Source: Spirochaetaceae bacterium
Lineage (GTDB): Bacteria > Spirochaetota > Spirochaetia > DSM-2461
Direction of reading: 5' to 3'
Length of the DNA: 64,000 nucleotides
NCBI GenBank assembly: GCA_965224705.1
Contig: OZ245056.1
Coordinates: forward strand, 1-64,000
Position numbers: made by a program. This document shows positions 9,001-12,000 of this stretch, one piece after another. Positions within the stretch are counted from its first letter, which is position 1. Every line of letters starts with the position of its first letter.

Positions 9001-12000
9001 TGAAAGGCCGCTGCCTTGAAGAACTGCGCGGAATTCATGAATTCATGCTGTTGACCACCTGCAACAGGGTGGAATTCTACGGACTGGTCTCAATCCGCGA
9101 TGTCACACTCAGTATGATTCGAACACATCTGGGCTTCAAGAACTTGAAATCCGGTGAATTCTATGAAATGCACGGCTTTGAAGCCCTGACTCACATGACA
9201 CAGGTTGGCTCTGGCATCCTCAGCCAGACACTGGGGGAGAACCACATTGTTTCCCAGCTTAAAAATGCCTTCAGTGAAGCAGAGAAACAGAAATGGGCCG
9301 GGCCATACATGAAGGACTGGCTTTCAAAATCTCTTCATGTTTCCAGAAGCATCCGAAAGGGTATAAGTCCCTATTTGAAGTACAGGGACATTGAAAATCT
9401 TGTTACGGCATACATGGAATGCATCCGTCCTGGGGAAGGAAAAATCCTCCTCATGGGGAGCGGTGTTGTTGGCCGGAGTATAGCAGAAGAGTTGAAGAAC
9501 AGATCCCATCCATTCACATGGGCCTACCACAGCCGCCCTCCCCTCCCCCCGGATGGAATTTCCATCCTGCCGATAGAGCCGGAAGAACTCAGGGCCAACG
9601 GTCCCAGCGACATTGTGATTTCTGCTCTGAATTTGCAGAATCCTCTTAAATACAAAGATTTTAAAGGAATACTGAAGGCCGATGGATGGGCAATTGATCT
9701 GGGTGTTCCCCGCAATCTGGATGCAGAGTGGAAGAAAAATCATTCACTGACTGATCTGGAAGACCTCAAACACTGGTATCGCCGCAACATGGCTGATCTA
9801 CAAACGATCAAGAAAATTACTGATCAGGAAATATCGGGTCACCGTGAAAACTATGAAAAACTCATCTCAACAATTTAATCAACTCAACATACGCTGCGGC
9901 TGCCGGACAAGCCCTCTCTCCATGATCCAGACGCAATCCGCAATTGATCAACTTCACAGCCTTTTGCCCTTCATCAACTGGACCGTCATCCCCTTCTCAT
10001 CACCTGGTGACCGGGATGCAAAACTTGATCTCCGGGAAGGCCCTGAGGATTTCTTTACCAGAGATCTCGATGAAGCTGTACAGAGAAGAGATATTGATTG
10101 TGCCATACACAGTGCCAAGGATCTTCCGCCCAGTGGTTCAAAAAATATGGATTGGTTCTGGCTGCCCTGGAAGGACGATCCCGGGGATGCCCTTGTATTG
10201 AGAGAGGGAGAATCAGCAGAGGCATTGAACAACGGGGGCCGTATCGGTGTGAGTTCAGACAGACGTTACCGATGGTGTACAGAGCACTATCCTTCAGCCG
10301 AACTTCTTTCGATTCGAGGCAATATTGAAAGCCGATTAGCTCAACTGGATAAGGGGAGTTTTGATGCAGTGGTCATGGCCGTCGCTGCACTAAACAGATT
10401 ATCTCTTACCAACCGTATAACAAAAATTATTCCACTCAGTGAACTTCCTACCCCTGCAGGACAGGGATATCTGGCTTTGAGCTTCTCACAGGGTCATTCT
10501 TTCTTCCAGAAGCTGAGAGCGCTGCTGCTCCCCCCTGTTCGCTTCGTCGGAGCCGGGGCCGGTGAGGCGGGCTGGATAGCAGAATACGCAGGGGGGGCCC
10601 TGGAGCAGGCCGAAGTATGTCTCCACGATGCCCTTATTGACAACAGGCTGCTGCACAGACTGCCTGTTGATTGCCAGCAAATTCCGGTGGGAAAACGTTT
10701 CGGAGAGCATTCCCACAGCCAGGATGCAATCTGTTCTCTTCTTGTTCAATATGCCCGCCAGGGAAAGAAAGTCGTCAGGCTCAAAGGGGGCGATCCGGGC
10801 ATCTTCGGTCGACTCAGTGAAGAAACGGCATCACTGGATGCCATGACGATACCCCACATTGTATATCCTGGTATCAGTGCCATGACTCTGGGAACCACAG
10901 GGACGGGGTTATTGCTCACCAGTAGAGGACTCAGTCGGGGATTCAGAGTTTACACCCCAGATCGTTCATCATTCTCTCATGATTCCACGAGTATCTTTCC
11001 AGACAACAAAGATATTCCAGCCGTTTTATACATGAGTCTCAGTGAGTTAAAATCGGTCAGGGAGTATTTTCTCAAGGAAGGGTTTTCAAAAGACACGAAT
11101 TGTGCCGCGGTGTATGCAGCTGGCACGTCTGAGGAGGAGATTCACCACTGTTCATTAGACAACCTTGAACATCTTCCTGATCCCGGGGGGAAAACAGGAC
11201 TCATCCTGGTCAATCTACCTATAAATAAACCCTATCATAGAAGTGGTCCTCTTTGTGGAGACCGAATTCTTCTCACCTGCAGCACAGAACTGCTGGATAG
11301 AGCCCGTCTGGGAGTCGAAAATGCAGGAGGTCGACCCGTTCTTTTGCCCCTGATTCAGCAAGAATACATGGAAGGCAGCCTGCCCTCTCCGAAAGAAATC
11401 ACCCGGTATGATTGGATTGTCCTCACCTCACCCATGGCCATCCGAATATTCCTTACCGCCTACAGGGAATCAGGGGGTGATTATCGCTGTCTGCCCAGAA
11501 TTATGGTGTGTGGTACGTCCTCCGCCAGAGTTCTCAATTCCCATGGTTTGATACCTGATTTGATACCTGATACCGGCTCTGATACGAATGCCCTTGCAGA
11601 AGCGGCCCGGTCAGTCATTTTACCTGAAGAGCGCATTTTGCGCCTTCGATCCGATGCGGCAGGTACAGGACTTGGAAAAAAACTGTCTGAACTCTGCACT
11701 GAAATCAACGACATCGAATTCTACCGAACTGCGGGGATACCCACAGATAAACCATGTCCGCCGTTTGAAGCCGCATTCTTTGCTTCCAGTTCTGCTGCTC
11801 AGATCTATCAAGAATACTGGGGAGTGGATTCACTCAGGAATAAACCGATTCTGGCACTGGGACAGCCTGTACGACAGTTGCTGGAATCAATGGGTTTGAA
11901 TAATATAATCGTTGCAGAACAAAGCGATGCCGAAGAAGCTATACAGGCGCTGGCCATAGAATACTTTCGACAGATGGTGAAAGAAAATGGGATTTCCTGA

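Follow-up and report, generated by a model that had tools for sequence, protein, structure and literature searches.

One gene of a spirochaetal genome joins a two-domain porphobilinogen deaminase (HemC) directly to CobA and HemD, without domain 3 or an equivalent of the cofactor-anchoring Cys242 of E. coli HemC, as confirmed by Pfam, BLASTP and HMM searches. Judged from its sequence, there is an even chance that the gene encodes a working enzyme from porphobilinogen (PBG) to precorrin-2, whose HemC module would form a second, anchor-free class of hydroxymethylbilane synthase (HMBS). A preliminary description of this DNA had claimed a widespread HemC that lacks domain 3 and the anchor cysteine, keeps its catalytic residues and primes polymerisation differently. 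The claim is supported, and it is stronger than first stated, since the presence of the short form follows that of downstream pathway genes and it takes the place of full-length HemC. The trifunctional fusion, which the same description took as the defining form, is just one of the architectures within a larger clade to which stand-alone chlamydial HemC also belongs. The relevant features of the window, the 64,000-nucleotide stretch analysed, are as follows.

4208..7493, + strand: cobD-cbiP(cobQ) fusion and cbiL, which open this gene run and give it a B12 context
8445..9878, + strand: precorrin-2 dehydrogenase-like domain (CysG N-terminal) fused to a short HemA
9853..12000, + strand: two-domain hemC-cobA-hemD fusion gene, 715 aa (ATG at 9853, stop ending at 12000)
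9883..10533, + strand: HemC domains 1-2 only, aa 11-227 (Pfam, alignments, structure overlay)
10009..10071, + strand: lid loop with clade signature D53-R-D55 ... D66-F67-F68-T69 ... D73 (E. coli G60-L61-F62-V63 ... E67)
10108..10122, + strand: HSAKD catalytic motif, Asp90 = E. coli Asp84
10510..10539, + strand: junction from the last helix of HemC domain 1 to the first SUMT strand
10534..11217, + strand: uroporphyrinogen-III C-methyltransferase (CobA/SUMT) domain
11254..11988, + strand: uroporphyrinogen-III synthase (HemD) domain
11987..12976, + strand: hemB, porphobilinogen synthase, which makes the HemC substrate
12973..14259, + strand: hemL, glutamate-1-semialdehyde aminomutase

A cysteine-bound dipyrromethane is the core of canonical HMBS action (PMC7242693, PMC13564367). 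In human structures, the side-chain ligands of the substrate site and of sites 1-2 all belong to domains 1-2; sites 3 and 4 have been modelled with rings A and c2, and binding at sites 3-5 is loose (PMC7959689). The apoenzyme is able to start from bare PBG (PMC13564367, PMC3949521). No substitution of human Cys261 is tolerated and almost every nonsense variant is damaging (PMC10577081); apo-HMBS is moreover regarded as unstable (PMC7907807), and removal of the anchor is therefore normally lethal to the enzyme.

The reading frame begins 23 codons upstream of the database call, as the preliminary description had held, giving 715 instead of 692 aa and restoring a stretch that carries Arg18 (E. 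coli Arg11). It shares 26 nt with the upstream gene and 14 nt with the downstream one. Pfam places PF01379 at residues 13-215, PF00590 at 231-438 and PF02602 at 488-697. The HemC part holds Arg18, Ser20, Gln26, Asp53, Phe68, Ser87, Lys89, Asp90, Ser135, Arg137, Arg138, Arg155, Arg161, Arg182, Gln204 and Gly205; in E. coli numbering, Asp84, Arg11, Gln19, Lys83, Arg131, Arg132, Arg149, Arg155 and Arg176 are all present. In the CobA/SUMT part, PF00590 scores above its cut-off and the GxGxG, DxL, GKR and RLKGGDPxxFGRxxEE motifs are all found; TIGR01469 falls below its threshold (162.3 vs 185) and is still the top-scoring methyltransferase family. The HemD part likewise passes PF02602 and has the TS, GxxT, Tyr and FxSxS motifs. 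The AlphaFold model of the three-enzyme protein is compact (pLDDT 90, pTM 0.89), and its HemC part, two periplasmic-binding-type domains forming a cleft, overlays solved HMBS over ~214 columns with an rmsd of ~2 A.

Domains 1-2 fold as in canonical HemC (TIGR00212; E. coli 1ah5, human 7ccx), with 33% identity to the E. coli enzyme over 215 columns, and a stand-alone two-domain member superposes on 1ah5 residues 3-222 with a Z of 22.8 and an rmsd of 1.9 A. The catalytic Asp and Arg set and the place in the pathway between hemB and hemD are common to both. All 17 solved HMBS sequences are three-domain proteins of 310-389 aa, and TIGR00212 scores the fusion protein just above its cut-off (165.7 vs 164) yet covers only positions 1-210 of 293. 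PF03900, the domain 3 family, is not found in the 715-aa protein at E<=0.1. The BLASTP match to E. coli HemC stops at E. coli residue 219 (query 225) and the SUMT strand begins at 229, which leaves no space for a domain 3 of ~90 aa; the junction lies at the point from which canonical HemC continues into domain 3 with Cys242. This is the sole HemC of the genome, as had been proposed, with one PF01379 match and none to PF03900 (controls matched in 11-12 of 14), and a six-frame search with a home-made domain-3 HMM gave nothing below E 3 (E. coli control 1e-26). Among the 120 homologues listed, 119 combine PF01379, PF00590 and PF02602 and none has PF03900, again in agreement with the preliminary description. 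Motif counting gives a junction of 30 aa in 82 of these 120, the remainder being regex misses, and none of the loci compared has space for domain 3 at the junction. A frameshift or assembly artefact was considered and is ruled out, the open junction being common to more than 100 homologues. One truly split canonical gene (locus L080) has domain 3 in the overlapping next frame and clusters with canonical HemC; it was left out of the counts.

It is highly improbable that some other component stands in for domain 3 in trans or provides a comparable cysteine loop, be it a separate protein that escaped recognition, the SUMT or HemD domain, or a second subunit. The PF03900 model is short, so diverged copies can fall below its cut-off (24.5 bits at locus L034), and the three enzymes are modelled as one compact body; nonetheless, PF03900 never stands alone in 41 + 100 + 81 + 5 genomes, no small ORF is common to the neighbourhoods of 89 loci, and Arg101, the salt-bridge partner of domain 3, is lost. 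The close family does keep Cys256 of the SUMT domain in 114 of 120 members and Cys553 of the HemD domain in 112 of 120. Cys256 is the residue previously numbered Cys233 and called the only invariant cysteine, a description that these counts do not bear out. A cysteine in the SUMT domain cannot serve as a general anchor since many members, the chlamydial-type ones among them, have no SUMT domain; Cys256 is thus ruled out in that role, and no HemD cysteine column is conserved across groups.

Residue conservation was further surveyed in 220 two-domain rows and in a distant set, the best 150 representatives at 50% identity, none of which has domain 3. Arg18, Gln26, Phe68, His86, Lys89, Asp90, Ser134, Arg138, Arg155, Arg161, Arg182, Gln204 and Gly205 are found in all 150. 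The invariance of the catalytic residues, as earlier described, thus extends to Asp90, Lys89 and five arginines (18, 138, 155, 161 and 182), but for Arg137 (E. coli Arg131) it is confined to the close family, with 104 of 150 distant representatives retaining it. The position of E. coli Arg101, whose human counterpart Arg116 is salt-bridged to Glu250 of domain 3 (PMC10577081), is Arg in 59 of 59 canonical rows, in none of 57 stand-alone and HemC-HemD rows and in 8 of 150 distant representatives. Thr154 declines from 58/59 canonical to 3/220 two-domain rows, Gln135 from 52/59 to 12/220 and Gly60 from 53/59 to 0/220. Gained residues are Asp66 (202/220 vs 0/59 canonical; Asp or Asn in 150/150 representatives), Phe67 (214/220 vs 1/59) and Asp73 (218/220 vs 6/59; 145/150 representatives). 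These contrasts may be overstated, as the 59 canonical reference rows lean to HSAKD-type, largely actinobacterial proteins. Unlike canonical HemC, the two-domain form lacks not only domain 3 and Cys242 but also Arg232, Arg101, Gln135, Thr154 and the GGKG lid, and has instead an acidic D-F-F-T..D lid (D/N-F-F-T..D). Residues contacting domain 3 have decayed together in the two-domain clade. In the fusion protein, a Trp-rich strand, DWFWLPW, lies on the side where canonical HMBS contacts its domain 3.

No cysteine is conserved in two-domain HemC modules: the best column reaches 112/220 and 40/150, and 4/220 and 3/150 modules have no cysteine at all. A covalent primer might still be attached elsewhere in domains 1-2, with Asp66 or Asp73 forming an ester, Thr69 or Ser134 an ether, or Lys89 an amine link, and a covalent tether is the only known way in which HMBS counts rings. 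Near-invariant nucleophile candidates specific to the clade are available for this purpose, namely Asp or Asn at 66, Thr or Ser at 69 and Ser134 (150/150 each) and Asp73. Such attachment is unlikely, however, as position 66 is Asn in 20 of 150 representatives, Thr69 and Ser134 are not confined to the clade but are seen in canonical enzymes too (at the position of Thr69, human HMBS likewise has Thr), and there would probably be no space for two extra rings without domain 3. A pyrrolylmethyl ester should also hydrolyse easily.

Two-domain HemC is found as a stand-alone protein, in HemC-HemD and HemC-CobA-HemD fusions, and behind HemA; the missing domain 3 is not a by-product of the HemC-CobA-HemD fusion. 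In an unrooted tree of 68 chosen rows with the signature columns kept in, two-domain forms lie on one side of a single branch (44 vs 24 rows, SH-aLRT 92), and a 133-row FastTree agrees except for the frameshifted L080. That the two-domain form is ancestral and predates the gain of domain 3 is very unlikely. Among 100 genomes of the chlamydial phylum, that of the Parachlamydia-titled genome, PF01379 is present in 83 and PF03900 in none; URO-D (HemE) has an identical distribution, being found in those 83 and missing from the other 17, a co-occurrence counted, like the others here, across kin genomes. HemC was found in 48 of 81 genomes of the Kiritimatiellia class sample, six of them with PF03900, each time inside a canonical HemC of 305-375 aa with no second HemC beside it; short and full forms exclude each other in this sample. 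Relatives have HemC in 9 of 41 and PF03900 in 0 of 41, with CbiD in 7 of those 9; one 96%-complete relative has CbiD and no HemC of any kind. ESM Atlas clusters of 185-240 aa with PF01379 only, from Omnitrophota, Chlamydiota and others, agree with the short form and add no mechanism. Most chlamydiae sampled, together with parts of Kiritimatiellia, Lentisphaerae, Omnitrophota, Bacteroidota and spirochaetes, may have the short form as their only tetrapyrrole route, a statement that, joined with that of a cofactor-free polymerase, has about equal chances of holding and failing.

HemD is in the same chain as HemC in 29 of 51 two-domain loci vs 1 of 28 canonical loci, and in 113 of 150 distant representatives. 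This strong enrichment, the lethality of anchor loss in canonical enzymes and the return of the fold to a bare type-II periplasmic-binding architecture would suit a module that is only a PBG deaminase or loose template, with capture by HemD setting length and isomer, or with a step that is poor but sufficient; at the extreme it would be a non-catalytic PBG-binding domain. This is distinctly unlikely, given that substrate-site and chain-site residues are invariant across sequences ~33% identical and that these genomes have no other HemC yet keep HemE or Cbi genes.

As the anchorless short form is also found in chlamydiae and several other bacterial groups, it probably builds its chain by a different mechanism. 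The residue pattern suggests a primer-free, non-covalent polymerase that turns its first PBG into ring A and hands the bilane on to HemD, a reading that stands evenly poised between acceptance and rejection. One PBG would be held non-covalently in pyrrole site 1, itself serving as ring A, while Asp90, at the substrate site, would deaminate each incoming PBG. With its free alpha carbon the chain would then attack the deaminated PBG, and it would slide through sites 1-3. As the substrate site together with sites 1-3 would accommodate all four rings, the two extra cofactor sites of canonical HMBS would be unneeded. The ring A amine could be lost before the start, with water capturing the azafulvene, or at the end. 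The lid acid Asp66 would be the best candidate to bind or protonate the ring A aminomethyl group; placed through its neighbourhood to human Lys74, it appears to adjoin a residue touching site 3 in human HMBS, and its replacement by Asn fits a putative binding role better than acid catalysis. Phe67 may block the channel beyond four rings. A fused or adjacent HemD would take the unstable bilane, which suits the enrichment of HemD in two-domain chains, and CobA would methylate uroporphyrinogen III for B12. Against the model counts the loss of Arg131 in 46 of 150 representatives, as this is a site-2 ligand that it still needs; so do the normally lethal effect of anchor removal, the failure to find CbiJ and the relative with CbiD but no HemC.

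Arg131 is required for cofactor binding in E. coli (PMC3945110); in that respect its relaxation favours the primer-free model and weighs against a recycled dipyrrole primer held non-covalently in the cleft, with the hexapyrrole built and cut as usual. The site-1 ligands of the cofactor are all kept and those of site 2 mostly, and release of ring A has been proposed to be self-catalysed by substrate acetate and not by protein residues (PMC7959689). Such recycling is nevertheless decidedly improbable, since sites 3-5 for the retreating cofactor need the domain-3 loop and arginines that are now gone.

If primer-free polymerisation is true, it represents a second mechanistic class of HMBS, a cofactor-free four-ring polymerase with its first substrate as its own primer. 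A natural HemC of ~220 residues without the anchor makes testable the purpose of the cofactor and how the enzyme counts to four, and reopens the old proposal of HemC-HemD coupling. Chlamydial HemC may be a selective drug target because no other HemC was found in the chlamydial genomes sampled, and because it has a lid unlike that of human HMBS and no domain 3. The three-in-one PBG-to-precorrin-2 enzyme could serve B12 or haem engineering.

In the source genome, B12 genes include cbiL, F, G, H, E, D, C, A, B, P, cobU and an adenosyltransferase; a search of the genome found neither CbiJ nor methylmalonyl-CoA mutase. A cobalamin riboswitch suspected by eye upstream of the operon had no Rfam match at gathering score or E<=5. 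The short HemA encoded upstream has no dimerisation domain PF00745. The short HemC may travel within a compact C5 operon in which HemA, too, has lost its dimerisation domain; taken jointly with the cofactor-free polymerase, this is again a balanced prospect.

Bifunctional CobA-HemD of anaerobes (NF005524/PRK07168-like) also has SUMT followed by HemD in one chain; the fusion protein differs in the HemC module in front and scores 104 on NF005524 against a cut-off of 603. Such CobA-HemD fusions are of Clostridium and Desulfovibrio type, and in many loci a gene of this kind also lies directly after canonical hemC. The Leptospira HemC-HemD fusion has both activities in one chain and keeps the cofactor cysteine. 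The chlamydial short HemC (NF002202/PRK01066, 241 positions) is a two-domain form with the same signature residues on the same side of the tree: it too ends after domain 1 helix 4, has the acidic lid and has lost Thr154 and Gln135. The fusion protein, by contrast, carries CobA-HemD and the Trp-rich strand, feeds B12 and not haem, and scores 144.9 and 147.7 bits on NF002202, below the cut-off of 251 that a Parachlamydia-titled stand-alone member passes with 252. NF002202/PRK01066 is a curated short model that NCBI already provides for the chlamydial form, under the name of ordinary hydroxymethylbilane synthase. The literature covered, with most subscription journals and the 1980s-90s work on C242S and aminomethylbilane outside its scope, yielded no description of a HemC without domain 3, of a missing anchor or of a HemC-CobA-HemD fusion. 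Chlamydial-type loci have the order rnc-radA-hemC, which matches the Chlamydiales core table (PMC3899948).

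The window protein belongs to a tightly overlapping gene run with the order cobD-cbiP, cbiL, membrane protein, CysG-N/hemA fusion, hemC-cobA-hemD, hemB and hemL, which includes:

8445-9878, fusion of CysG-N/precorrin-2 dehydrogenase and a HemA that lacks the dimerisation domain
9853 (ATG) to 12000, plus strand, two-domain hemC-cobA-hemD, ORF of 715 aa

Residue numbers refer to the 715-aa form unless stated otherwise. Pfam places PF01379 (HemC domains 1-2) at residues 13-215, PF00590 (SUMT/CobA) at 231-438 and PF02602 (HemD) at 488-697, and did not find PF03900 (HemC domain 3) in the protein. 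The alignment to E. coli HemC runs no further than E. coli residue 219, where the hinge to domain 3 lies (domain 3 spans 222-313 and holds Cys242; PMC3945110); the first SUMT strand starts at query residue 229. AlphaFold, given a 117-row alignment, returned a confident model (pLDDT 90, pTM 0.89) whose HemC part superposes on solved HMBS over ~214 columns at ~2 Å. Pfam, alignment and model thus agree with the preliminary description of a HemC without domain 3 and the anchor cysteine, fused to CobA-HemD. That it is the sole HemC of the genome also holds, as the single contig (95% complete) gave one PF01379 match and none to PF03900 or a home-made domain-3 HMM. All three Pfams occur in 119 of the 120 listed homologues, and PF03900 in none. 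The window protein resembles canonical HMBS in fold, residues and context, its function being predicted, but fails two defining features, domain 3 and the anchor cysteine.

Two-domain HemC is very probably a working enzyme, judging from sequence conservation and gene content. The best 150 among 50%-identity representatives all lack domain 3 and all keep thirteen active-site positions, Asp90, Lys89 and five arginines among them (150/150). Co-occurrence was counted over kin genomes, which are not independent samples: in the chlamydial phylum, 83 of the 100 genomes scored (one further genome went unscored) have PF01379, in open frames that span 203-330 or 418-476 aa, and none has PF03900, with uroporphyrinogen decarboxylase following PF01379 genome by genome (present in those 83, absent from the other 17); in the Kiritimatiellia class sample, HemC was found in 48/81 genomes, PF03900 in six, each time within a canonical HemC of 305-375 aa, and no genome had both short and canonical forms; among 41 relatives of the window's genome, HemC was found in nine, all long fusions, and PF03900 in none, with CbiD in seven of those nine and, without HemC, in three others, one of them 96% complete. 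Most anaerobic B12 genes are present in the window's genome, in which CbiJ had no match. Set beside these patterns, a mere deaminase or template appears an unlikely role for the two-domain protein.

For the residue comparison, 59 canonical rows, a set weighted to HSAKD-type proteins plus E. coli, were set against 220 two-domain rows, of which 118 belong to the close family and some are duplicates, after 13 fragments and one unclear row had been dropped. In E. coli numbering, Arg101 falls from 59/59 canonical to 106/220 two-domain rows (0/57 in stand-alone and HemC-HemD rows), Thr154 from 58/59 to 3/220, Gln135 from 52/59 to 12/220, Gly60 from 53/59 to 0/220 and Glu204 from 45/59 to 2/220. Gained are Asp66 (202/220 vs 0/59), Phe67 (214/220 vs 1/59), Asp73 (218/220 vs 6/59) and Asp55, the last in only 114/150 of the independent representative set. 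This set repeats the losses and gains, and position 66 is Asp or Asn in all 150. The lid is also more acidic, with a mean net charge of -2.4 to -2.8 vs -1.2 in canonical forms. Human Arg116, the equivalent of Arg101, pairs with domain-3 Glu250 (PMC10577081); its loss argues against a partner supplying domain 3 in trans, the least probable of the alternatives. Another covalent anchor is improbable too, if less so than any other rival. No Cys column is conserved in the two-domain modules of the 220-row and 150-row sets, and some modules contain no Cys at all. The SUMT-domain cysteine, earlier described as invariant, proved not to be so (Cys256, 114 of the 120 listed homologues).

HMBS offers a single substrate site plus pyrrole sites 1-5; with the chain at full length, site 3 was modelled to contain ring A and sites 4-5 the cofactor, bound loosely via a domain-3 loop and arginines (PMC7959689, Sato et al.). 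All side chains that serve as ligands in the substrate site and in sites 1-2 lie in domains 1-2 and are kept in the clade, except the variable equivalents of Asn169 and Thr145. A primer-free four-ring enzyme would therefore need only what the clade keeps, and canonical apoenzyme can start from bare porphobilinogen (PBG) (PMC13564367; PMC3949521). We infer that two-domain HemC polymerises non-covalently and that the first PBG would itself become ring A. A non-covalent but recycled primer is also conceivable, though we consider it unlikely. In the primer-free polymerase, ring A would still have to shed its amine. Deaminase turns aminomethylbilane into hydroxymethylbilane. Asp66 is a candidate for handling the ring-A amine and would lie near site 3, since it aligns to the position after human Lys74, which touches the ring there (PMC7907807). 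A fused HemD is present at 29 of 51 two-domain loci vs 1 of 28 canonical ones, which fits a fast hand-over of product. Against a non-covalent polymerase stand the relaxation of E. coli Arg131 in the clade (Arg137 here, only 104/150 in the independent set) and the essential Cys261 of human HMBS (PMC10577081), and the model would leave chain retention and counting without an account.

The two-domain form extends well beyond the window's family. Searches for shorter relatives and loci gave complete HemC proteins of 215-245 aa with a stop codon at the expected start of domain 3, titled Chlamydiota, Omnitrophota and Prevotella. HemC-HemD, HemC-CobA and HemC-CobA-HemD fusions occur in Kiritimatiellia, Lentisphaerae, Planctomycetales, Bacteroidota and spirochaetes, and HemA-HemC fusions are also among the two-domain forms. 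Of 80 hemC loci, 51 were two-domain and 28 canonical; one canonical gene split by a frameshift (L080:5172-6112) was left out of counts. In a 68-row tree (unrooted, signature columns kept) 44 two-domain rows fall on one side of a branch with SH-aLRT 92, and a 133-row FastTree gives the same split except for L080. The HemC module of the window protein matches the 241-position NCBIfam model NF002202/PRK01066; it is probably a sister of the chlamydial group, yet scores below the cut-off (148 vs 251), which a Parachlamydia-titled member passes (252). Chlamydial loci have the order rnc-radA-hemC, listed for the Chlamydiales core genome (PMC3899948). Short HemC has thus long been in databases under the usual HemC name. 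Odd single fusions of two-domain HemC involve an ArsC/LMW-phosphatase domain, sulfite reductase-TusA or a position behind (SirC-)HemA (P0266, P0301, P0311, P0341, L041), and the homologues P0121 and P0006, from contigs of equal length, are apparent halves of one frameshifted fusion gene.

HemA is shortened in the same lineages. Beside two-domain HemC, 240-321 residues follow its catalytic TCxR motif in 28/29 loci, the exception lying on the opposite strand; at canonical loci the length is 338-397 in 13/13, with short HemA in 0/13. PF00745, the dimerisation domain, was missing in 5/5 tested genomes with PF05201 (controls detected in 8 and 10 of 14). PRK00676, a model of 338 positions, also matches the HemA encoded in the window. 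HemA and HemC have both shed a C-terminal third domain.

All 17 PDB matches are 310-389 aa long, with no two-domain structure among them. A search of the open literature found no paper describing either the lost anchor or the triple fusion; subscription papers, older mutagenesis work, supplements and curated database comments may already contain a remark on the short chlamydial protein. Passages of PMC7242693 and PMC8561815 describe only a Cys-bound cofactor. The anchor-less HemC is real and likely hides a new mechanism.

Several further observations concern the window and its surroundings. A Trp-rich motif, DWFWLPW (10150-10170, aa 100-106), is conserved in the fused family only; it occupies the strand which in canonical HMBS is turned towards domain 3, and may pack on the SUMT domain. 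The 323-aa membrane protein within the run (7477-8448) has a weak Gate-domain match (E 0.03) and is possibly a cobalt or precursor transporter. Minus-strand transposase-like genes at 1822-3567 and 14314-15432 flank the entire tetrapyrrole run (4208-14259), which, with the patchy distribution in the genus (4/13 other genomes), hints at horizontal gain. The leader of the B12 run (3780-4060) holds short stretches that by eye resemble cobalamin-riboswitch elements; Rfam gave no match there at E<=5. Two further clusters (G000:C1 2682590-2691620 and 2846337-2850860) carry the rest of the cbi/cob genes, and cbiL occurs twice in the genome. Other two-domain loci adjoin genes resembling, by eye, sulfite reductase or Ahb genes. 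One genome (G110:C1 485352-492548) scores lowest for HemC in the sample of its phylum, its URO-D match is broken in two, and its tetrapyrrole pathway may be decaying. A tRNA gene (15642-15713) follows the second transposase, and a run of rhodanese, sulfur-transporter and JAB-protease genes lies on the minus strand at 26938-30324.
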